A stretch of DNA of 64,000 nucleotides. Source: an uncultured Desulfurococcales archaeon. Lineage in GTDB: Archaea > Thermoproteota > Thermoprotei_A > EX4484-217-1. The notes under the pieces were generated by a model. That model searched no databases and was not told the DNA's origin. It worked only from the letters and a program-made list of their open reading frames with translations. Position 1 is the stretch's first letter; the number at the start of each line of letters is the position of its first letter. Made by a program: the position numbers and the translations under genes. Location of the stretch: NCBI GenBank assembly GCA_964564025.1, contig CAZLZO010000002.1, forward strand, positions 15,936-79,935, read 5' to 3'. Below, one piece after another: positions 1,522 to 61,442 of the stretch.

Positions 1522-2760
1522 GTGTTTGATATCTTGAGTGTAGTTAAGGAAAACGTTTATTTGAAATGTGTAAACTGTGGTGCAATTTACCCTCCAAACC
1601 CTAAAACATATAAGTGTGCAAAGTGCAATGGCTTACTTTCTGTAGAATATGATTTCTTAAAAACCGAAATTTCATGGGAGGATTTTAAAGGGAAAGGTGT
1701 ATGGCGCTATAAGCAACTTCTCCCTCTTTCAGAAACCTTACTTGATTACGTAATAACATTAGGTGAAGGCAGCACACCACTTATTAGCGTTGAAAATATT
1801 TTTGGTTCAAAAAGCTTCTACGTTAAGTTTGAAGGCGCAAACCCTACGGGGAGCTTTAAGGATAGAGGGATGACGGTTGCAGTTACACTAGCTAAACTTA
1901 TAGGTTCGACATCAGTTATTGTTGCTTCAACAGGAAACACTGCAGCATCTGTTTCAGCATATGCTTCACGAGCCAAAATGAAATCCATAATAGTTTTACC
2001 TAAGGGAAAAGTTGCTTTAGGTAAACTTGCTCAAGCAATACTTCATGGTGCAGAAATTTTTGAAATTGAAGGGAACTTTGATGATGCATTAGAGGTTGTA
2101 AAAAAAGTTGTTGAGAAAGAGCCGAAAATATATCCTTTAAACTCCTTTAATCCATGGAGACTTGAAGGACAAAAGACTATAGCATTTGAAATTGCCGAGG
2201 AAATTAACACGCCAGACTGGGTTATTGTACCTGTGGGTAATGCAGGAAATATTTCAGCAATATGGAAGGGCTTTAAAGAGCTTTACAGATTTAAACTCAT
2301 AAATAAGCTACCAAAAATGGTGGGCGTTCAATCAGAGGGGGCTTCACCATTAGCTAGAGCATTTGAACTTGGATTAAGCAAACCTATTTTCACTGATAAG
2401 CCTGAAACTATAGCAACTGCTATTAGGATAGGTAAACCTGTCAATTGGCCTAAAGCAATGGCTGCAGTTAAGGAATCTAAAGGCCTATTTGTTAAAGTTA
2501 GTGATAAAGAAATATTTGAAGCAATGGTGAAATTAGGTTCCCTTGAAGGTATTGACTCGGAACCTGCAGGAGCAGCTAGTGTTGCAGGTTGTTTAAAACT
2601 TTTAAAGCAAGGCATTATTAAAAGGAACGATAATGTTGTATGTGTAGTTACTGGTCACGCATTAAAAGACCCTGAAATCCTATTAAGAATTCAAGCGAAA
2701 AGAACAACCATGCTTAAGAACAAAGCTATAGAGATAATTTTGAAAACTACTTCCCATTAA
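1522..2760 (+). CDS. thrC: Threonine synthase
   Basis: N-terminal Cys4 zinc ribbon (CVNCG...CAKCNG) typical of archaeal ThrC, and the PLP-lysine motif TGSFKDRG. 412 aa with a GTG start. Confidence 0.85.
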   Translation: MFDILSVVKENVYLKCVNCGAIYPPNPKTYKCAKCNGLLSVEYDFLKTEISWEDFKGKGVWRYKQLLPLSETLLDYVITLGEGSTPLISVENIFGSKSFYVKFEGANPTGSFKDRGMTVAVTLAKLIGSTSVIVASTGNTAASVSAYASRAKMKSIIVLPKGKVALGKLAQAILHGAEIFEIEGNFDDALEVVKKVVEKEPKIYPLNSFNPWRLEGQKTIAFEIAEEINTPDWVIVPVGNAGNISAIWKGFKELYRFKLINKLPKMVGVQSEGASPLARAFELGLSKPIFTDKPETIATAIRIGKPVNWPKAMAAVKESKGLFVKVSDKEIFEAMVKLGSLEGIDSEPAGAASVAGCLKLLKQGIIKRNDNVVCVVTGHALKDPEILLRIQAKRTTMLKNKAIEIILKTTSH

Positions 2761-3800: not shown

Positions 3801-3866
3801 AAGTGATGACTGTGGCGGGCTTGACCTAAGACTATTAGGGATGAAGACTTAGGAGCCCCCTGATCT
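3801..3866 (+). ncRNA. Candidate C/D box sRNA
   Basis: Intergenic. C box GTGATGA (3803-3809), C'-like ATGAAGA (3841-3847), 12-nt guide cttaggagcccc, D box CTGA (3860-3863). The D' box is degenerate. Weak terminal pairing AGA/TCT. Confidence 0.35.
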
Positions 3867-4186
3867 ATCTTTAAAATGTTATATACTGATGTTTGAAAGC
3901 ACTATTGAAATATTTTCATTCTATAATTACGAGTTACTTGCTATTCTCTTCAAGTTTAAAGAAAGAACTTACTCTAACCTCTGTAAAATTTTCTTACTCG
4001 TTATGGATTCTAGTGAATTAGCTAAGTTAAAAGTCCCCATGTAATGATAATTGTAGTCATGGCTAAGAAAATGTTGAGTTTTAATGGGAGCATCATGGTT
4101 CTAATTACAGCATCTTTACCTCCATTAGAGGCTTATATGAAATATAAGAGAAGAGCTATAAACTTGTAATGTAACTAAAAAGTTAT

Positions 4187-12960: not shown

Positions 12961-13060
12961 TTCTTATCTATCCTCGGGAAGGTATAGTTAGGGATTTCCC
13001 TAAAAATTTTGCGTGAAAACTATATTTGAGACTTCGGTGTAGAACATAAATAGGGCATCC

Positions 13061-13122
13061 CTTATAGATGATGAGTGAACCCGGATCAGATATAATGAAG
13101 ACATGTGGAAGGGCTGAATAAG
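13061..13122 (+). ncRNA. C/D box sRNA (2'-O-methylation guide)
   Basis: C box ATGATGA (13068-13074), 12-nt guide, D' CAGA (13087-13090), 4-nt spacer, C' ATGAAGA (13095-13101), 12-nt guide, D box CTGA (13114-13117). A perfect 5-bp terminal stem CTTAT/ATAAG flanks the boxes. Confidence 0.6.
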
Positions 13123-13191
13123 TTTACCGATGAAGAAAAGGTAGGTTGCCGAAATAAAGATGAGGACGTTATCCCCGTCGGAGGTTTTCTT

Positions 13192-13773
13192 ATGAAGCAG
13201 CATACAGTAATAAGCACTATACTGTCCGTTAAACCCGATAAGTTAATTGTAAAAGCTGTAAAGAAATTAAGGGATTTTGAAGCAACAATAATTGAAGTAG
13301 ATGAAGAAAATAGAGTTTTAAAGTTTGCATTGCCCTTAAAATATTATCCATTTTTAGCAGAGTTCATAGAGGAATATGCTTCTACAGTGGAATACCAAGT
13401 CTTAACAATAATATTTCACGATCTGTCTGCGGCTAAACTTAAGGAATTCTATAATAGAGCTAAGGATATACTAAAGTTATGGATTATTTCGCCTCCCCAA
13501 TCATATGTAAGAATTTTAGGTGTAATAAAAACCACACATGGAAACGTAATGCTTGAAATGTATCCAAGAAGAACAAGAAGAAAGGGTACTATTTACTTAA
13601 GATATTTAGGTAGAAAAGGTGATATCATTGACTCTTATACTGTTCTAACTCAAGTGGTAGCTTTTAGACAGTTCCAAAATAGGCAGACATTTTATAATGA
13701 AATTGATAAAGCATCGAAAGCTTTGAAGATAGCTGAAGTTATTATTAGAAATATTTTAAGGAGTAAGAGTTAA
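13192..13773 (+). CDS. Hypothetical protein (start revised from 13105)
   Basis: The in-frame ATG at 13192 is preceded by GGAGG (13180-13184) with a 7-nt spacer. The upstream ATG at 13105 lies inside the C/D sRNA. Confidence 0.45.
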   Translation: MKQHTVISTILSVKPDKLIVKAVKKLRDFEATIIEVDEENRVLKFALPLKYYPFLAEFIEEYASTVEYQVLTIIFHDLSAAKLKEFYNRAKDILKLWIISPPQSYVRILGVIKTTHGNVMLEMYPRRTRRKGTIYLRYLGRKGDIIDSYTVLTQVVAFRQFQNRQTFYNEIDKASKALKIAEVIIRNILRSKS

Positions 13774-13781
13774 AACAGAAA

Positions 13782-13845
13782 CATGGATGATGACCGCCCT
13801 ATCCTTAGAGTATATACGATGACGAGTAGAAATCCCGGCTGATAA
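13782..13845 (+). ncRNA. Candidate C/D box sRNA
   Basis: Intergenic, between two convergent gene ends. C box ATGATGA (13787-13793), 12-nt guide, D'-like TAGA, C'-like GATGACGA (13818-13825), 13-nt guide, D box CTGA (13839-13842). Confidence 0.35.
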
Positions 13846-13869: not shown

Positions 13870-14412
13870 TTATAGTTCGCTAACAGCTTTCCTAATGGAC
13901 TTTGTCACTCCATCTTCATAAACTAATCCAGCGTTTTTAAGAACTTCTAGAAGTTTTTGTTCTTCTTTGCTTAATTCCTTTACCTTATCTTTAGGTATTG
14001 GCAATTTATTCCATAATTCAAGAAGCTTTGGTTTATATACCAAATATGATCTGCCTGCTGCATGAATTATTTTGAAAATGCCTTCATTAATGTATCTCTC
14101 TATTTTCTCTTTTGAAGTTCGTATTTTATCTAAAGGGTACACAATTACATCTTTGATGAATCCTACGAATTTATCGTGTCTTACTTCATATTTTCTAGGG
14201 AATTGTGGAGCAGTAATTTCTTCAAGACCGCGCTCAATACTACTTAACCTCCTAGAAAGCTCAAAGTATATTGCGAAGTGTACATTGTTGCTTAAAACTA
14301 AACGTAACACTTCATCATAACTCATTTTTCTTTTAAATACTTCTTCTAAAACTTTCCTATACTTTTCCAGAAGCCTATAAGTTTCCTCGCTAACGCTTAT
14401 AGTATAAGTCAT
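13870..14412 (-). CDS. Hypothetical protein
   Basis: ORF 13870..14496. The start at M29 (14412) is preferred because the longer form overlaps the 3' end of rgy. Confidence 0.4.
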   Translation of the reverse strand: MTYTISVSEETYRLLEKYRKVLEEVFKRKMSYDEVLRLVLSNNVHFAIYFELSRRLSSIERGLEEITAPQFPRKYEVRHDKFVGFIKDVIVYPLDKIRTSKEKIERYINEGIFKIIHAAGRSYLVYKPKLLELWNKLPIPKDKVKELSKEEQKLLEVLKNAGLVYEDGVTKSIRKAVSEL

Positions 14413-14455
14413 TTCAATTCTTAGCCTCAAGTAGAATAGTAGGGGTTCAGAGTAT

Positions 14456-17400
14456 TTATGTTTCAACTTTAGCTTTTTCAGCATGAACTCTAACATACGG
14501 CTTGTTAAGCATCGTTAAAAGGTCTCTCAATACTTCAATGTAATTTAACTTACCCTTCTCTATAAGATTCATGGTCTCTTCAAGCTTTCTTGTGGTTTCC
14601 TCTGAAACAAGGTGCTTATAGTTTTTGTTAAGATATTCATATACTTTAATACCTAGAGTTGTTGGAACTAAATACTTGTTCTTACTTTCTATTACGTAAC
14701 CGTGCTTAAGTATGGAGGATAATATTTTAGCGTAAGTTGAAGGCCTACCTATTCCTCTATCTTTCATTAATTTAATTACGTCTCCCTGCCTATACAGGGA
14801 ATTTAATGAACCTTTCCACATTTTACAATCAACTATTCTTATTACTGATCCTTTGTTTACATTATTTAAGCTTAATACTTGCTGTATTGGAAGAATCTTG
14901 AGAAATCCTTCTTCAACGACTTTGCTTATAAACTCTACAGTCTTGGCATCCTCTCCGATCTTAACCGTTAACCTTACCTTTTCAACTATAGCAGATTTCA
15001 TTTGACTTGCAATAAATCTTCTGAATATGAGGTCATATACTTTGAAATGCGTATAAGTGAAGTTTGCAAAGGTCCTTAACGTTCCATTTAGTAAGAGTTT
15101 TTTAAGAGTTTCAGCATCATAGGGTTTTGTAGGCCTAATGCATTCATGTGTTCCTTCGGCACCCCAGTTTCTTAACTTTATAAGGTCATTACACTTTAAC
15201 GTATTGAATATGTATTCTTTAGCTACTTCAAACCCTGCGTTTGAAACATGCGTGCTATCTGTTCTATGGTATGTTATAAAGCCTGATTCAAAGAGGTCTT
15301 GAAGAACCCTCATAGCAAATTGAGCGTCTAATCTGTATTTACTAGTGAGCTCTGAAAGTAGAGTATTCGTTGTGTAAGGGGGTGGTGGGTTTATTTTCTC
15401 AATAAATGTCGTTTTTATTAAGATTAACGCGCCGTTTTTAACGTATTCTTTAATTAATGATTTATCAAAGTAAACATCATAATCAAATCTTACTTTTAAT
15501 CCGCCTTCTAAAATGTACTCGGCGAAGAGTCTTCTTGAGGCTTTCCATTTTTTGTGTTGTTTTATTATCCATCCTAGTACTGGTGTTTGTACTCTTCCTG
15601 CTGATAGCCAGTGTTTTCCGAAAACACCCCAAAGCCTCCTTGAAAGCTCAAAACCAATCCAACGATCCTCAACACGCCTAACAACCTGAGCCTCAACAAG
15701 AAACCTATCTATTTTTCGCGGGTTCGCTAAAGCCTTTATTATAGCCTTCCTCGTTATTTCGTGGAATTCTATTCTGAAAATGTTTTTTACGTAGGGTTTA
15801 AGTAGTAGCATGACGTCCCATGCTATTTTCTCACCTTCACTGTCAGGATCTGTTCCAATAAATACCATGTCAACTTCTTGAGCAAGCTTTCTTAGGGTAT
15901 CTATAATGCTTTTCGAATCAAATATTTTTGTTGAGCCGCATTTTGGACAAACAACGCTATTTAACGTATATTGATGGCCGCATTCTCTACATTTCTTTAT
16001 TGTAGTATATATGGGAGCTATAGTGTCGGAGTCTACAAGTACACCAAAATACCCCATGGTTGATGATGTTGTTAAGTCAAGTATGTGTCCTTTAGTAGCA
16101 ACTATAGATAACATGTAATCTTTTGATCCCAGCTTAGGATCTCCTACAAGTACTTCATAAACTACTACTCCATTTATTCTTCTTTTCGATGGTTTACCGA
16201 AGAAGTAGGCTATGGTTCTGGCTTTTGTTGGAGATTCAACAACAAATAAAGCGGGGATAATAGGGTCTTGGTATTTTGCTTCAATCTCTCCTCTCAATAT
16301 TTTTCTAATAACTTCCCTGTCTCTATCTATTTCATGAAGAATCTTGCTTAAATTGATTTCATCAAATTTCTTTATTTCAAAACTATCGATATAATACCTC
16401 AATTGCTTAATTAATTTCTTAAACACCTTTTCATCATCAACCAATATTATGCTAAGACCCTTCGTCATTCCGTTTGCAAACATTCTAGATGTTCTACCGC
16501 TAGCTTGAATATACGTCATAACATCCGGTGAGACTATGTAAGTTTTACCTTTAAATTCCCTAAGAATTAATAACTGTGATTTCTTCAGTTTATCCCTAAT
16601 AATTGAATCCGATATTTTGTTAAGAATGAATTTTTTTGCTTCAAGTATTATTTGCAAGAGCTTACCTAGGTACCCTTTAAGCTCTATGTTCTCGCTTATT
16701 GCTCTCCTTAGTATCTTTAATTCTTTAAAGCTAATTTTATCTAATGATTTTGATAGAATGTTAATGGTCTTCCTTATATATTTCAGTTCATCCTCGTTTT
16801 CAACAGCTTCTTCTAATGCTGTTAAGAGAACAATTATCTTTACAGGATTATTCAATCCCTTTTCTAATTCTATTTGAAACTTAGGAACCCCTAAGAAAAT
16901 AGCGTATCTTATTCTATCAGGTATGTCTATTCCTCTAACTATTACGCCATAGTAATTTGCGATGCCTACTAGTATGTCGGTTTTTCCTTCAACAAATCTT
17001 TTAATATAACCATGTCGTGAGGATGAAGCAAGCTCAGCTTTTATGCCGTTTTCCCTTAATTTTTCTACTAGCTTCCTAGCTTCCTTAACCCCTAGATCTT
17101 GAGATACGAATATTAATCCTCCATTTCCCAGCTTCTTAATTAATGAAATTACTTGTTTTACATAGTCTTTCTCTAAGGGCATGTATGTGTCTACAACGTT
17201 TCTCATATACTCTATTACTGTTCCAGCTTCGAACTTTAGAAGTTCTTTAAACATCTTAGCTTTAAGACCTTTACTTCTACCAGTAGCGCTGCATACAAGT
17301 ATTTGCCCTAATTTTGTTTCTTTAACATATTTTTCGATTTCCGCTTTATATTCTCTTATTTTTTCCCTTATCCTAGCTATTTTGTTTTCATTAGAGCCTG

Positions 17401-18163
17401 AAATTACAAGTTTAAAGAAGTCTATTTTACTTACTATGAGCTTGTATGCTATCTCAAGTATTCTATCATTAAATCCTATGAGCTTTAAAATTCTGTCTAT
17501 ATTTCTAGAGTTCCTAAGTAAAGCATCAACATCATCAACTATTATTAGCGAGAATCTATATGTTCCTATTTTTGCAAAGTTTTTTGAAAGATAAGCTGAT
17601 GTGGTTATGAGTAATTGGAAATTTCCAGTTTCCAGAAGATCTTCATTAATTATACCTGGTGAGCAAATGTTTAAGGTGATGCCAAGTTTGGAAACAAACT
17701 CCAAAGCTTTCTTCGTGACTTGGTCTTGAAGATTTTTCGTGGGAACTATGATGTATGCTCGGCTTTTACTTTTAAATGCATGGTATAGTGCATAAATTAT
17801 GGAAAACGTTGTTTTACCAACTCCCGTAGGAGCTATGATGGCAAAGCTTTCACCTTTCAAAAGCCTTTTAGCCCAAGTTCTTTGAGCACTCCAAGGCTTC
17901 TTTCCAGAAGCTTTACTAAAGAATACTTCGAACTCCTTAATGCTTCTTTCAATATTTAAAATTTCTTTGTAACCATAAAGTTTTTTTCTCGTTAAAAGAT
18001 TAATGTAGACATTTTCTTTTAAGGATAATTTATCTAATTTAACATGTTCTAAACCATTTAGGCAAACTCTACATGGAAGACCCTTTATTAGTCTCTCAGT
18101 ATCTATGAAACCCCCACAATTAGGGCAAGCATGTTCTATAATAGCGTAAGGCAAAATCGCCAC
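14456..18163 (-). CDS. rgy: Reverse gyrase
   Basis: 1235 aa. N-terminal zinc ribbon (CPNCGG...CRVC), helicase motifs (APTGVGKTT, DDVD) and a C-terminal type IA topoisomerase domain. GTG start. No intein (normal length). Confidence 0.95.
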   Translation of the reverse strand: MAILPYAIIEHACPNCGGFIDTERLIKGLPCRVCLNGLEHVKLDKLSLKENVYINLLTRKKLYGYKEILNIERSIKEFEVFFSKASGKKPWSAQRTWAKRLLKGESFAIIAPTGVGKTTFSIIYALYHAFKSKSRAYIIVPTKNLQDQVTKKALEFVSKLGITLNICSPGIINEDLLETGNFQLLITTSAYLSKNFAKIGTYRFSLIIVDDVDALLRNSRNIDRILKLIGFNDRILEIAYKLIVSKIDFFKLVISGSNENKIARIREKIREYKAEIEKYVKETKLGQILVCSATGRSKGLKAKMFKELLKFEAGTVIEYMRNVVDTYMPLEKDYVKQVISLIKKLGNGGLIFVSQDLGVKEARKLVEKLRENGIKAELASSSRHGYIKRFVEGKTDILVGIANYYGVIVRGIDIPDRIRYAIFLGVPKFQIELEKGLNNPVKIIVLLTALEEAVENEDELKYIRKTINILSKSLDKISFKELKILRRAISENIELKGYLGKLLQIILEAKKFILNKISDSIIRDKLKKSQLLILREFKGKTYIVSPDVMTYIQASGRTSRMFANGMTKGLSIILVDDEKVFKKLIKQLRYYIDSFEIKKFDEINLSKILHEIDRDREVIRKILRGEIEAKYQDPIIPALFVVESPTKARTIAYFFGKPSKRRINGVVVYEVLVGDPKLGSKDYMLSIVATKGHILDLTTSSTMGYFGVLVDSDTIAPIYTTIKKCRECGHQYTLNSVVCPKCGSTKIFDSKSIIDTLRKLAQEVDMVFIGTDPDSEGEKIAWDVMLLLKPYVKNIFRIEFHEITRKAIIKALANPRKIDRFLVEAQVVRRVEDRWIGFELSRRLWGVFGKHWLSAGRVQTPVLGWIIKQHKKWKASRRLFAEYILEGGLKVRFDYDVYFDKSLIKEYVKNGALILIKTTFIEKINPPPPYTTNTLLSELTSKYRLDAQFAMRVLQDLFESGFITYHRTDSTHVSNAGFEVAKEYIFNTLKCNDLIKLRNWGAEGTHECIRPTKPYDAETLKKLLLNGTLRTFANFTYTHFKVYDLIFRRFIASQMKSAIVEKVRLTVKIGEDAKTVEFISKVVEEGFLKILPIQQVLSLNNVNKGSVIRIVDCKMWKGSLNSLYRQGDVIKLMKDRGIGRPSTYAKILSSILKHGYVIESKNKYLVPTTLGIKVYEYLNKNYKHLVSEETTRKLEETMNLIEKGKLNYIEVLRDLLTMLNKPYVRVHAEKAKVET

Positions 18164-31638: not shown

Positions 31639-31893
31639 GTGATTGTGAAAATGAGTGTAGCTTATGAATATAAGATAGTGAAATGCCCTTACTGTAAAAA
31701 CATCCTTGTAGTTAAGATTAAACAGAAAATTAAGTTATGCACTTACTGTGGAAGGAGGCTTAAAGTTTATGAGCTAAAAGCGCTAGCTTACGCTAGAAGC
31801 TCATATGAAGCTCACTTGTTAGTGAAGTACTATAAAGCTAAAGAGGCAGGGTTAGAAAAGAAATTATATGGTGATGAAGGCACTCGGATCTGA
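31639..31893 (+). CDS. Small zinc-ribbon protein
   Basis: CPYC...x15...CTYCG. 84 aa. Confidence 0.4.
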   Translation: MIVKMSVAYEYKIVKCPYCKNILVVKIKQKIKLCTYCGRRLKVYELKALAYARSSYEAHLLVKYYKAKEAGLEKKLYGDEGTRI

Positions 31894-31992
31894 TATTGAT
31901 GATGGTTTTCCCGCATTACTGACATATTAAAAAAGATTTTTAAATCTGTGTTGAAAAATTATTAGAAAAAGCTGAAAGTTAAGGGAAAGAAC

Positions 31993-32784: not shown

Positions 32785-34560
32785 ATGGATACTGAGGCTT
32801 ACGTATCAAAGTATTACTCTAGATTTGTATTTACTTCACCTAAGCTTACTAGCTTAATTGCTGCATACGTCCTTTTACTTACTTTATTATGTATTTTGAA
32901 AGCTTCTATGGGTTACGTAGCGAGTGTTTTTTACTTAGTTATTGTTGCCTTATTAGTGTCAAATATCTTAACATTTATAATGCTTAAAAGAAGTGTTTTA
33001 AGGGCTAAAAATTTTTTAAGAAGAGTTCTTGTTCTGCTTAATTTTGTTCTATTACACTTATTAATTTTTGAATCGTTATCAGTTATTGTTTTTGGCTTAA
33101 AATATCCATTCTTAATCACTTATTGTGGTTATTCCTTTATCCATTATCTTTTAATAAGACCTAAGCGTAAAGTTTTAGAAAGTATTGTTGAAGCTTCAAT
33201 TCCTGTAGTAGCATATTATGTGTTGGCGAGTATTTTCGTTAAAGATCTCATATTATTGCCGCTTGCTTTAGGATCTTTGGTATCAGCTCTTATGGGAGAA
33301 CTTTATTTTTTAACTTTGAGAAAATATTCGAAAATAGGAGATTTTACCCTTAAATTCTCAGAAGCTTTCTTGGAACTCTGGTTTGCAAATAACAAGAAGC
33401 CTCTTGAGGAAGTATTAGAGAAAAACTCCGTTAATGGTGAAGTTTGGATAAAAGTGTTCACCATAGTTGATAAGAGTTCAAGAAATGTTAAGGGAATTAT
33501 AGCATTAACATCTATTCATGCGGGTCCTTTCAGAGATGTTGGTAGTTCCAAAGTTATTGCAAAACTACGTGATACATTAAAGAAAATTTACGGAAATGTT
33601 CCTGTGGCAATATTTCATACAACAACTACTCATGAAAAGGACTTAGTTTCTTCACGCTATCTTGAGGAGGCACTTGAAGAGTTGGTGAGAACTTTAAAGG
33701 CAAACAACTATGACACCATAGAGGAAATATATGGTTTATTTAACTTATGCATAGATAACCAATGTGCTTATATAATAGGGTTAGATAAAGTTCCTTTAAT
33801 TTTGCTTTATAACTCTAAGAACGGTATTGATGATTTACCAACATACCTTAATGATGCATTAGAGAGAAAAATCCGTAAAATCGAGAAGCTAAAGGATATT
33901 TTCTTAATTGAAGCCCATAATTCTAAGCCGGAAGGCGTAAGAAATGTTGCAAAAGAGATGAACTATTATAGGAAGCTTATTGAAGAAACATTACCAAAAA
34001 TATTTCTCAATGATGAGTCCAAAAAATCCCTTAAGATAGGTATAGCAGAGGTAGTGGATGCAGAACTTATCGGATGTCGTGATTTATGTTCGCCAATAAT
34101 AAACGCAATAGCGTTCGAACATAATGGTCGCATATCTGTTCTTATAGTTTATGATGGAAATAATGCTTTAGAGGATTTTAGAAACATTGTGAAAGATGAA
34201 GTTAGGAAACTAAATGAGAACATAGTGTTTGCTGAAATTACTACCACAGATAATCATGAAAAGACAGGTTATTTTGGTGGGCAGACATATGTTCCTGTGG
34301 GAGCAAGTAAGTGTAGGAGTGTAATTATTAAATTAACCGTTGATGCTGTTAAGAAAGCGTTAAGTTCCATAAGTGAATGTAAGCTAAAATACTTTAGGGT
34401 TAACATTAAAACTAAGATTTTAGGTTCCTTAGGATATAGGGTTTTAGAGGATATAGTGAAAGATCTTAAAATAACTGTTTCTTTATTTTTTGCCCTAAAC
34501 TTTTCCTCGTATATTTTAGTTTCTACACCAATAGTTTTTATATATGGAAGTCTTTTCTAA
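32785..34560 (+). CDS. Polytopic membrane protein with a C-terminal soluble domain (DUF2070-like)
   Basis: 591 aa. The N-terminal 200 aa holds 5-6 TM helices. Assigning it to a named family is tentative. Confidence 0.4.
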   Translation: MDTEAYVSKYYSRFVFTSPKLTSLIAAYVLLLTLLCILKASMGYVASVFYLVIVALLVSNILTFIMLKRSVLRAKNFLRRVLVLLNFVLLHLLIFESLSVIVFGLKYPFLITYCGYSFIHYLLIRPKRKVLESIVEASIPVVAYYVLASIFVKDLILLPLALGSLVSALMGELYFLTLRKYSKIGDFTLKFSEAFLELWFANNKKPLEEVLEKNSVNGEVWIKVFTIVDKSSRNVKGIIALTSIHAGPFRDVGSSKVIAKLRDTLKKIYGNVPVAIFHTTTTHEKDLVSSRYLEEALEELVRTLKANNYDTIEEIYGLFNLCIDNQCAYIIGLDKVPLILLYNSKNGIDDLPTYLNDALERKIRKIEKLKDIFLIEAHNSKPEGVRNVAKEMNYYRKLIEETLPKIFLNDESKKSLKIGIAEVVDAELIGCRDLCSPIINAIAFEHNGRISVLIVYDGNNALEDFRNIVKDEVRKLNENIVFAEITTTDNHEKTGYFGGQTYVPVGASKCRSVIIKLTVDAVKKALSSISECKLKYFRVNIKTKILGSLGYRVLEDIVKDLKITVSLFFALNFSSYILVSTPIVFIYGSLF

Positions 34561-35437
34561 CATTGTTAAGGAAATACAGAGGTCACTTATGATGAGTTCT
34601 CAAGGGTTGAGAAACCTTAGGGTTCCAAGTTTTATTGAGAAGCAGAAAGAACTTATCCTTAGACGCTTTAAGAAAATAAAGTATAAAATACTTATAGGTA
34701 GCGGTAAGGGAGGTGTAGGAAAAAGTTTTATCGCTGCAAACTTAGCTGTAGCCTTGACTATGTTTGGAAAGAAGGTTGGGATACTTGACGCGGACTTTCA
34801 TGGCCCTGATATCCCTAAAATTCTCGGCTTAAGGGGTACTCCTCTTTTAGCAAGTCCTCAGGGAATAATACCTGTTACTTCAAGGGATGGTATAAAGGTA
34901 GTGTCATTAGACTTCATGCTTCCAGATGATGAAACGCCTATTATATGGAGAGGTCCTTTAAAAATTTCTGCTATAAGGCAGTTGTTAGGAGAGGTTAACT
35001 GGGGGGAACTTGATTATTTCATTGTTGATTTACCTCCAGGTACAGGTGATGAACCTTTAAGCGTTGCTCAGGAAATGCCTAATCCCTCAGGGATAATTCT
35101 AGTAACTCTTCCATCAGAAGTTTCCTTACTTGATGTTAAACGAGCTGCGGGTTTCGCAAAGAAACTTAACCTCCCGATTTTAGGTATTGTGGAAAACATG
35201 AGTTATTATAAATGTCCTAAGTGTGGTCATGTAGACTATGTTTTCGGTAAAGGCGGAGGAGAATTCTTAGCTAAACACTTAAATGTTGATCTCCTCGGCA
35301 AAATACCGTTAAGTTCAAAGATAGCTGAAGCAAATGATAAAGGCATTCCTTTTGTGAAAGCTTACGCTAATGAAGAAGGCGCTAAGGAAATTCTTAAAAT
35401 AGCCGAAAAAATAGTTAAGAAGTTAGAGGAGAGTTGA
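34544..35437 (+). CDS. Mrp/NBP35 (ApbC) family Fe-S cluster carrier ATPase
   Basis: Deviant Walker A GSGKGGVGKS plus the CPKCGH cluster-binding motif. 297 aa. A likely start lies at an internal Met (about 34589). Confidence 0.85.
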   Translation: MEVFSNIVKEIQRSLMMSSQGLRNLRVPSFIEKQKELILRRFKKIKYKILIGSGKGGVGKSFIAANLAVALTMFGKKVGILDADFHGPDIPKILGLRGTPLLASPQGIIPVTSRDGIKVVSLDFMLPDDETPIIWRGPLKISAIRQLLGEVNWGELDYFIVDLPPGTGDEPLSVAQEMPNPSGIILVTLPSEVSLLDVKRAAGFAKKLNLPILGIVENMSYYKCPKCGHVDYVFGKGGGEFLAKHLNVDLLGKIPLSSKIAEANDKGIPFVKAYANEEGAKEILKIAEKIVKKLEES

Positions 35438-35494
35438 TGATAGGACCACGAAATGACCTATAAGGGATGATGACCAGGCTAAACACTGATCTCA
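35428..35494 (+). ncRNA. Candidate C/D box sRNA overlapping the mrp stop codon
   Basis: Terminal GAGA/TCTC pairing, C box TTGATGA (35434-35440), 12-nt guide, D'-like ATGA, 9-nt spacer, C' GATGATGA (35466-35473), 12-nt guide, D box CTGA (35486-35489). Confidence 0.5.
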
Positions 35495-41387: not shown

Positions 41388-41448
41388 ATAACTTGATGAG
41401 CGGCGAACCCGCGTCTGAAAGATGATGAAAGCTGGTGCTCGTGATAGG
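41388..41448 (+). ncRNA. Weak candidate C/D box sRNA
   Basis: Locally GC-rich. C TTGATGA (41393-41399), D' CTGA (41415-41418), C' ATGATGA (41422-41428), 12-nt guide, D-like GTGA (41441-44). The first spacer is 15 nt and there is no clear terminal stem. Confidence 0.3.
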
Positions 41449-61382: not shown

Positions 61383-61442
61383 TTATCAGTGGCGACCGTT
61401 TTCATCACGAAAGCTCAGTGAGGGAAAGGATCATCACATCCT
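61383..61442 (-). ncRNA. C/D box sRNA (dual-guide 2'-O-methylation guide RNA)
   Basis: The minus strand reads aggatGTGATGAtcctttccctcaCTGAgctttcGTGATGAaaacggtcgccaCTGAtaa. That is C box (7), 12-nt guide, D' (4), 6-nt spacer, C' (7), 12-nt guide, D (4), all with canonical box sequences. Confidence 0.7.

Follow-up and report, generated by a model that had tools for sequence, protein, structure and literature searches.

The question raised by this locus is whether positions 13061–13122 on the plus strand of the window (the whole 64-kb stretch of archaeal DNA that was analyzed, AT-rich at 34.6% GC) hold a box C/D sRNA, as the original prediction proposed, or part of a protein, the mechanical ORF list giving here a 222-aa frame that starts at a GTG at 13105. 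Read on the plus strand, the sequence is CTTAT-AG-ATGATGA-GTGAACCCGGAT-CAGA-TATA-ATGAAGA-CATGTGGAAGGG-CTGA-ATAAG, exactly as had been described, and we refer to it as sRNA-1. Its parts are the following.

13061..13122, + strand: sRNA-1, predicted box C/D sRNA gene including a 5-bp terminal stem (from sequence, scan, Rfam, and conservation)
13061..13065, + strand: 5' strand of the terminal stem, CTTAT, which pairs with ATAAG at 13118–13122 on direct reading
13068..13074, + strand: box C, ATGATGA, with six of seven positions invariant across five lineages and A/G at position 1 as the sole change
13075..13086, + strand: D' guide, GTGAACCCGGAT, with 10 of 12 positions invariant and an 11-nt Watson–Crick run on S. 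acidocaldarius 23S rRNA
13087..13090, + strand: D' box, CAGA (lineage variants CAGA, CGGA, CTGA, and CTAA)
between the D' box (ends 13090) and the C' box (from 13095), + strand: spacer, TATA, from sequence
13095..13101, + strand: C' box, ATGAAGA, the same in four of five lineages and ATGATTG in loci L036-39
13102..13113, + strand: D guide, CATGTGGAAGGG, with 11 of 12 positions invariant; it holds the spurious GTG start at 13105
13114..13117, + strand: box D, CTGA, invariant
13118..13122, + strand: 3' strand of the terminal stem, ATAAG, which pairs with CTTAT

In archaeal box C/D sRNAs, RUGAUGA and CUGA form the tandem sheared G·A pairs of a kink-turn; the class has guides of about 12 nt (10–13), a size of about 50–70 nt, box-proximal guide pairing of about 9 bp or more with rRNA or tRNA, and the N+5 nucleotide as target. 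sRNA-1 has box C and box D near its 5' and 3' ends, C' and D' boxes that retain their GA dinucleotides, and two 12-nt guides, and measures 50 nt from box to box or 62 nt including the stem. The CTTAT/ATAAG stem is present as originally written, but it is restricted to the clade of the window, distant lineages having about 2 bp and locus L007 having ATAGG, which changes a U-A pair to U·G. As drawn with 5 bp, the stem also leaves a bulge of 4 nt (A-G-A-U) before the G·A pairs, where 3 nt would be canonical.

A strict architecture scan of both strands of the window (RTGATGA; 10–13 nt; an NNGA D' box with at most one mismatch to CTGA; 2–8 nt; a C' box with at most one mismatch; 10–13 nt; CTGA) returned three sites, at 13068–13117 (+), 31871–31922 (+), and 61386–61437 (−), and none in each of 100 dinucleotide-preserving shuffles. 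At gathering thresholds no Rfam family matched. With permissive settings, sRNA-1 aligns over its full length to many Pyrococcus C/D families, the best being sR28 (RF01136), with 23.5 bits against a gathering score of 39 (E = 3.6e-4 on a 401-nt region, 0.057 on the whole window), while sR4 (RF01125) reaches 23.4 bits against 50, also full length. sRNA-1 is thus not a member of any named Rfam family; since those C/D families are guide-specific, an RNA with new guides would be expected to score below their gathering values. Minimum free energy folding compared with shuffles revealed no extra stability (z = 0.6, −0.05, and 1.3), which is expected as well, since the guides must remain single-stranded.

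In order to follow the locus across lineages, we used loci L001-L003, which are identical to that of the window and come from metagenome assemblies, and a close relative represented by L004-L007 (including the NCBI MAG GCA_964406965.1), all found by exact look-ups, together with syntenic loci reached via homologs (79, 77, 64, and 55% identity) of the neighboring DUF2208 membrane protein, namely L032, L034, L035, and L036-39. The gene order is kept in all loci: reverse gyrase, a 180-aa gene, the ORF, the intergenic region, DUF2208, and the Lhr helicase. sRNA-1 is conserved in L005, L007, L032, L034, L035, and L036-39, the last group having the canonical CTGA as D' box. The intergenic regions of five lineages were aligned, and invariance was taken as the share of invariant positions in each segment. 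Box C (86%), the D' guide (83%), the D guide (92%), and box D (100%) of sRNA-1 all lie in the range of 83–100%, with the D' box at 50% and the C' box at 57%, and the upstream flank (22%), the spacer (25%), and the linker to the next sRNA described below (0%) span 0–25%; the 7 nt before the ATG of the ORF are 14% invariant. Judged from this alignment, the pattern is the expected signature of a C/D guide RNA, and not that of coding or neutral DNA.

That box-like words came together by chance in functionless AT-rich intergenic DNA is scarcely credible, and this comparative pattern can be said to have effectively refuted it already: the boxes are short, the internal ones are degenerate, and a gathering-level Rfam match is absent, but the full architecture was found in none of 100 shuffles, boxes and guides are selectively conserved amid diverging intergenic DNA, and none of 300 shuffled guides equaled the match of the D' guide to rRNA.

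The alternative that the region codes for protein, the ORF starting at GTG 13105 and the C/D motifs being coincidental within an N-terminal extension, has to be weighed against the downstream gene itself.

13192..13773, + strand: gene for a 193-aa conserved orphan protein, its true start being ATG 13192 (from ortholog starts and frame breaks)

The GTG at 13105 does fall inside sRNA-1, as had been noticed, within its D guide, the ATG at 13192 is in the same frame, and the 222-aa version appears not only in the mechanical list but also in some gene calls (P0001 and P0003). In close relatives, however, the protein is 92–93% identical and called at 193 aa, and their DNA carries a 1-nt insertion (a T after GGAGG, at 13184/85) that breaks the frame from GTG 13105. 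Every ortholog of 38–58% identity begins at the methionine equivalent to ATG 13192, and on reading upstream from it in L032, L035, and L036, the frame runs into stops at −60, −6, and −30 nt before any start codon is reached. The string 'DEDVIPVGG' found in mis-called N-termini recurs only as the translation of an invariant guide and box D belonging to a second sRNA (sRNA-2, below). The coding alternative is therefore already effectively refuted, with a probability close to nil. By these sequence comparisons ATG 13192, which the original prediction had preferred, is the real start, and the gene model should be corrected from 222 aa to 193 aa.

The ORF protein itself had no match in Pfam or NCBIfam, nothing significant against the PDB with Foldseek, and only its own cluster in a word-indexed homolog search, and a full HMMER scan returned seven representative clusters among 1.84 billion proteins. 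The protein appears lineage-restricted, and its predicted fold is TBP-like.

The original prediction also placed a GGAGG Shine-Dalgarno sequence 7 nt upstream of 13192. The motif is indeed there, but it is also part of the box D and terminal stem of a tandem C/D sRNA, conserved as well as sRNA-1, that the prediction had missed. Read by hand, this sRNA-2 is ACC-G-ATGAAGA-AAAGGTAGGTTG-CCGA-AATAAAG-ATGAGGA-CGTTATCCCCGT-CGGA-GGT, and a further candidate, sRNA-3, starts 14 nt past the stop codon of the ORF.

13126..13185, + strand: sRNA-2, predicted tandem second C/D sRNA (from Rfam, conservation, stem covariation, and 16S matches)
13126–28 and 13183–85, + strand: terminal stem of sRNA-2, ACC/GGT, 100% paired, with one covarying pair
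13130–36, + strand: box C of sRNA-2, ATGAAGA, from sequence
13137–48, + strand: D' guide of sRNA-2, AAAGGTAGGTTG, from sequence
13149–52, + strand: D' box of sRNA-2, CCGA, from sequence
13160–66, + strand: C' box of sRNA-2, ATGAGGA, from sequence
13167–78, + strand: D guide of sRNA-2, CGTTATCCCCGT, from sequence
13179–82, + strand: box D of sRNA-2, CGGA, from sequence
13180..13184, + strand: GGAGG, candidate Shine-Dalgarno sequence together with the GGA of sRNA-2 box D and the first two stem nucleotides, invariant in all lineages
13787..13842, + strand: sRNA-3, predicted third C/D sRNA (from Rfam sR7, sequence, and syntenic conservation)
13787–93, + strand: box C of sRNA-3, ATGATGA, from sequence
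between box C and the D' box, + strand: D' guide of sRNA-3, CCGCCCTATCCT, from sequence
13806–09, + strand: D' box of sRNA-3, TAGA, from sequence
13819–25, + strand: C' box of sRNA-3, ATGACGA, from sequence
between the C' box and box D, + strand: D guide of sRNA-3, GTAGAAATCCCGG, from sequence
13839–42, + strand: box D of sRNA-3, CTGA, from sequence

sRNA-2 has a complete dual-guide layout with two 12-nt guides, and all four of its boxes are degenerate yet keep the critical GA. Position 5 of box C and position 2 of box D are partners at 3b·3n of the kink-turn, and the A·G pair that sRNA-2 would have there is compatible with K-turn folding. The box variants ATGAAGA, CCGA, CGGA, and GCGA are known from sRNAs that have been sequenced in P. 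calidifontis, N. equitans, and I. hospitalis, and permissive Rfam searches aligned 13126–13184 at full length to sR55 (21.9 bits) and sR36 (20.9 bits).

Across the five lineages, invariance in sRNA-2 is 100% for CCG plus box C, 25% for the D' guide, 50% for the D' box, 0% for the spacer, 71% for the C' box, 92% for the D guide, and 100% for box D plus GG, and both CCGATGAAGAAAA and GTTATCCCCGTCGGAGG are invariant in every lineage. The C-stem pairs C13128-G13183, C13127-G13184, and N13126-N13185 are formed in 100% of the alignment cells, the third one covarying as A-U, U-A, and G·U. GGAGG (13180–84) lies 6–12 nt upstream of the ATG across lineages and 7 nt upstream in the window, and would have a dual role, as Shine-Dalgarno sequence and as part of the box D and stem of sRNA-2. 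sRNA-3 matches Rfam sR7 with 21.9 bits and is kept in the same syntenic loci. In all lineages sRNA-1, sRNA-2, the ORF, and sRNA-3 retain this order on a single strand. The 64-kb window holds at least seven C/D sRNA candidates, of which three belong to this locus and the others lie elsewhere.

As target proxies we used the 16S and 23S rRNA alignments of seven archaea published as a supplement by Dennis et al. 2015 (PMC4644070) and, as a second proxy, L010, an unrelated Thermoprotei rRNA operon with 82% identity to an S. acidocaldarius fragment. Significance was assessed with 300 composition-matched shuffled guides against the available rRNA sequence.

The suggestion that the guides of sRNA-1 be compared with rRNA was borne out for one of the two. 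The D' guide (GUGAACCCGGAU) pairs with S. acidocaldarius 23S rRNA, 5'-AUCCGGGUUCA-3', over 11 of its 12 nt in a contiguous, box-proximal run that none of the 300 shuffled guides equaled. Applying the N+5 rule, this match predicts 23S G2140 in the numbering of the Dennis 2015 alignment, which corresponds roughly to E. coli 1850, in a domain IV hairpin, as counted off the alignment ruler. The same nucleotide is the predicted target of I. hospitalis sR314 and sR96, and the D guide of sR314, GAACCCCGGC, pairs with the same hairpin (PMC4644070). The L010 operon lacks the sRNA-1 targets, including that of the D' guide.

For the D guide of sRNA-1 (CAUGUGGAAGGG) no match of 9 nt or more was found in the 16S and 23S rRNAs of the seven reference archaea, nor any analogous guide in their sRNA lists. 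Its best rRNA run, of 8 nt in a variable 23S hairpin, was reached by 46 of 300 shuffles and is not significant. It is presumably functional, because it is strongly conserved, and on present evidence it is an orphan. Orphan guides are common, reaching 28% in Pyrobaculum (PMC7994747).

Other searches covered further kinds of target. Neither the window nor the loci of the relatives contain tRNA genes; manual placement of CCUUCCACAUG on tRNA anticodon loops was rejected, as it violates U33 or purine-37, and a cis target was likewise discarded, the only match of the D guide in the window being its own antisense. Genome contigs scanned with the 23S target context ATCCGGGTTCANCCGGGCGAAG gave one Clostridia contig, and S. 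acidocaldarius, whose published 23S rRNA has this string, was not returned. Metagenome contigs scanned for the D-guide target in the variable 23S hairpin (GCCGGCCTGAC N2-8 CCCTTCCACATG) gave one chance match, to non-rRNA sequence on a GC-rich contig of bacterial origin. The 11 matches in viral contigs scanned for box C plus the D' guide of sRNA-1 all lack C/D architecture and are due to chance. A search for rRNA operons by way of spurious ORFs, obtained by translating the 23S rRNA of S. acidocaldarius, retrieved L010 and several unrelated archaea, none of them of the lineage of the window, and a full-text literature search with the guide and target 12-mers returned unrelated primers only.

For sRNA-2, 11 nt of the D guide (CGUUAUCCCCGU) are complementary to 5'-ACGGGGAUAAC-3' of 16S rRNA, a run equaled by 1 of 300 shuffles, and N+5 falls on G132. 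The D' guide pairs with 16S AACCUACC, 15 nt upstream of the D site, through eight Watson–Crick pairs and one G·U, N+5 being approximately C117. The two guides of one archaeal sRNA typically target nearby sites. 16S G132 is the predicted target of M. maripaludis sR101 (UGUUAUCCCCGG), N. equitans sR3 (AAUUAUCCCCGC), whose D' box is CCGA, and I. hospitalis sR414 (AGUUAUCCCCGG), which is also predicted to target C116 (PMC4644070). Going by sequence, the G132 and C116 pair of sR414 and the predicted G132 and C117 pair of sRNA-2 would be essentially the same.

What the analysis shows directly is the arrangement of the motifs and its departure from chance, the way conservation is distributed, the match of guides to proxy rRNA, and the start of the ORF. 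sRNA-1 is very probably a true methylation guide of the archaeal box C/D class, the first of a tandem pair, with a D' guide directed at a 23S G. Expression, protein binding, methylation, and co-transcription of the sRNAs are what we infer on this basis, through the standard guide-RNP mechanism of the C/D family. Box C (AUGAUGA) and box D (CUGA) of sRNA-1 would come together in a kink-turn, with the short terminal stem closing it, while an internal K-loop would arise from C' (AUGAAGA) and D' (CAGA). L7Ae would bind both the C/D kink-turn and the C'/D' K-loop, and Nop5 and fibrillarin would then assemble. Once each 12-nt guide has paired with its target, the nucleotide facing the fifth guide base, counted upstream from D or D', would receive a 2'-O-methyl group from fibrillarin. 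In sRNA-1, the D' guide would in this way lead to methylation of the G of the 23S domain IV hairpin (G2140), and the guides of sRNA-2 to 16S methylation at G132 and approximately C117.

It could also be argued that these elements act mainly in cis, as L7Ae-binding leader kink-turns that control translation of the ORF, instead of or besides guiding in trans. In sRNA-2, the invariant GGAGG that lies 6–12 nt before the ATG contributes its GG to the terminal stem. In S. acidocaldarius, L7Ae represses l7ae translation via a 5' UTR K-turn beside the Shine-Dalgarno sequence (Daume et al. 2017, PMC5539422), and a C/D gene overlapping the 5' side of an ORF reduces expression of a downstream reporter (Tripp 2017, reviewed in PMC7994747). 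However, a role purely in cis would fail to account for lineage-invariant 12-nt guides complementary to rRNA sites that are targeted in other archaea, and sRNA-1 is 70 nt away from the Shine-Dalgarno sequence. We consider this cis-regulatory explanation unlikely.

How the sRNAs are transcribed is a separate matter, on which a promoter candidate upstream of sRNA-1 bears.

13019..13030, + strand: A/T-rich box, AACTATATTTGA, candidate TATA element about 30 nt upstream of sRNA-1, inferred; an A/T block occupies the same alignment columns in all lineages

sRNA-1 ends 69 nt upstream of ATG 13192, and the box D of sRNA-2 is separated from it by 9 nt, an interval too short to house a promoter and in which the lineage alignment has no conserved A/T box. 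The sRNA-1/sRNA-2 pair, taken as a unit, lies on the same strand as the ORF and within 25 nt of its start, a conserved position that agrees with the 5'-side class of Tripp 2017 (reviewed in PMC7994747). Archaeal C/D genes mostly have no promoter of their own, a TATA-like motif belonging to the gene itself being present in about 20%; many touch or overlap ORFs (7% overlapping a 5' end), and a significant fraction is grouped in twos or threes (PMC7994747).

A less likely but still appreciable reading is that sRNA-1 is transcribed separately, from a promoter to a 3' end of its own, and the ORF from a promoter inside the sRNA-1/sRNA-2 region. In its favor are the A/T-rich box about 30 nt upstream, the TATA-like motifs of about 20% of archaeal C/D genes, and A/T-rich stretches in the linker (13117–28) and in the sRNA-2 spacer (13153–59). 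These internal stretches, however, are not conserved between lineages, the plus strand has no terminator-like site after sRNA-1, and the order of sRNA-1, sRNA-2, ORF, and sRNA-3 on one strand holds in all lineages.

A transcript shared by sRNAs and ORF is favored because of the 9-nt gap that is devoid of a conserved A/T box, and the single-transcript model is the simplest, given one strand everywhere, that same gap, and the A/T block upstream of sRNA-1. Most likely, one precursor would start at a promoter upstream of sRNA-1 and be trimmed to the cores protected by the sRNPs. The location of sRNA-1 in the 5' leader of the ORF, as originally suggested, is plausible.

A more speculative extension, to which we give a low probability, is that sRNA-1, sRNA-2, the ORF, and sRNA-3 form one transcript in which sRNP assembly on sRNA-2, or its trimming, masks or removes the Shine-Dalgarno sequence and so decides the fate of the mRNA. 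The geometry of a K-turn regulator is present at sRNA-2, where the GG of GGAGG is paired in a C-stem supported by covariation, and L7Ae-dependent repression would be the predicted effect. If true, expression of the ORF protein would be coupled to the load of free C/D sRNP proteins in the cell. The K-turn stem overlapping a Shine-Dalgarno sequence offers a testable case of sRNA/mRNA coupling, within a class of arrangement that has already been described.

sRNA-1 to sRNA-3 are newly delineated sRNAs of a well-known kind, and both the tandem disposition and the contact with an ORF start belong to classes of arrangement already known. Together with the other candidates in the window, they add unannotated C/D sRNA genes for an uncultured Thermoprotei lineage. 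The locus yields one conserved orphan guide and two target-site assignments shared with distant archaea, and the recurrence of the predicted sites, 23S G2140 and 16S G132 with C116/117, in another archaeal lineage supports the existence of widely conserved guide-site pairs.

Compared with the archaeal box C/D sRNAs described so far (PMC4644070, PMC7994747), the RNAs of this locus share the C, D', C', D order, the 12-nt guides, the box-to-box length of about 50 nt, the short terminal stem, the high gene density, and the clustering and abutment or overlap with ORFs. Nothing essential differs; the internal boxes and all four boxes of sRNA-2 are degenerate, in variants that sequenced sRNAs also have. 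Archaeal hyperthermophiles are rich in C/D sRNA genes, and catalogs of over a hundred numbered sRNAs exist for some species (PMC4644070). With the Pyrococcus families sR28 (RF01136), sR4, sR18, and sR5 of Rfam, sRNA-1 has in common all four boxes and their spacing, aligned at full length, but its guides are unrelated to theirs and the scores are 22–23.5 bits, against gathering values of 39–50. The L7Ae autoregulator of the 5' UTR (PMC5539422) resembles sRNA-2, and not sRNA-1, in that a K-turn strand adjoins or contains the Shine-Dalgarno sequence in the leader; in sRNA-2, however, the K-turn is one part of a complete C/D sRNA with two guides, and the downstream gene is not l7ae.

Closer counterparts are found among individual sRNAs. 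I. hospitalis sR314 and sR96 share with the D' guide of sRNA-1 the predicted 23S G2140 and its hairpin, whereas sR314 carries this guide next to box D, which is GCGA, and combines it with a different partner. It shows no overall sequence homology outside the guide core, and would thus be a functional analog rather than a demonstrated ortholog. The 5' half of M. kandleri sR83, CCCCGATGACGAAAGGGTAGGTTGCCGT, is near-identical to TACCGATGAAGAAAAGGTAGGTTGCCGA of sRNA-2, but its listed targets are 16S G126 and A114. The known sRNAs compared with sRNA-2, from M. maripaludis, N. equitans, I. hospitalis, and M. kandleri, differ from it in their box variants. M. maripaludis sR101, N. equitans sR3, and I. 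hospitalis sR414 all have the guide core GUUAUCCCCG directed at 16S G132, with the G132 guide on the D' side in the first two, in contrast to sRNA-2. I. hospitalis sR414, with G132 on the D side, C116 on the D' side, and CCGA as D' box, has essentially the same arrangement as that proposed here for sRNA-2.

The sRNA flagged by the original prediction (sRNA-1) is followed immediately downstream by a second one, and a third lies beyond the 193-aa orphan protein gene (13192-13773), starting 14 nt after its stop codon:

13126-13185 (+), sRNA-2, a complete C/D box sRNA with degenerate boxes (ATGAAGA/CCGA/ATGAGGA/CGGA)
13787-13842 (+), sRNA-3, a C/D box sRNA (ATGATGA-12 nt-TAGA-9 nt-ATGACGA-13 nt-CTGA)

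The GGAGG that had been read as the Shine-Dalgarno sequence of the orphan gene is indeed present, and it also forms part of box D and the terminal stem of sRNA-2. This sRNA is kept across all syntenic lineages, and the 16S sites matched by its two guides are G132 and about C117. The comparison used proxy rRNAs, namely published archaeal 16S and 23S sequences, including those of S. acidocaldarius (Dennis 2015), and an unrelated Thermoprotei operon (L010). sRNA-3 is common to the loci of the close relatives (L005 and L007) and to syntenic loci of more distant lineages (L032, L035, and L036); neither of its guides had a target in the proxy rRNAs.

On the opposite strand, a further mechanical call overlaps the end of the reverse gyrase gene (14456-18163) by about 40 nt:

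13870-14496 (-), mechanical 208-aa ORF

Since the relatives' calls for this gene are 180-185 aa long, compared with 208 aa in the window, its start is probably over-extended as well.

A segment of the published S. acidocaldarius 23S rRNA, AAATCCGGGTTCAACCGGGCGAAG, was not found in a search of the genome contig collection, which seems to mask or lack either rRNA genes or the clade concerned. Separately, protein P0012 comes from a spurious ORF; the contig that carries it is archaeal 23S rDNA, from an organism unrelated to the lineage of the window. Its translation passes from conserved 23S sequence directly into residues coded by AT-rich DNA, which suggests an intron or insertion in the 23S gene of that organism.

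Two further candidates, both with TTGATGA as box C, were picked up only through weak Rfam matches of 18-19 bits:

35434-35489 (+), C/D candidate, its box C enclosing the stop codon of ORF 34544-35437
41393-41444 (+), intergenic C/D candidate, with GTGA as box D and a first spacer of 15 nt

The C/D-type Rfam matches at 2496-2610 (+) (snoR130, weak, 24 bits, E 5.6) and 3839-3868 (+) (sR23, partial, 21.6 bits over an aligned length of only 30 nt) are probably noise.

Elsewhere in the window, canonical C/D box sRNAs were found at two positions:

31871-31922 (+), canonical C/D box sRNA overlapping the 3' end of ORF 31639-31893
61386-61437 (-), canonical C/D box sRNA

The D' box of the former contains the stop codon of the overlapped ORF, and its D guide has an 11-nt match to 16S CAAUGCGGGAAAC in the L010 operon, while the D' guide of the latter matches 11 nt of 23S, UGAGGGAAAGG.
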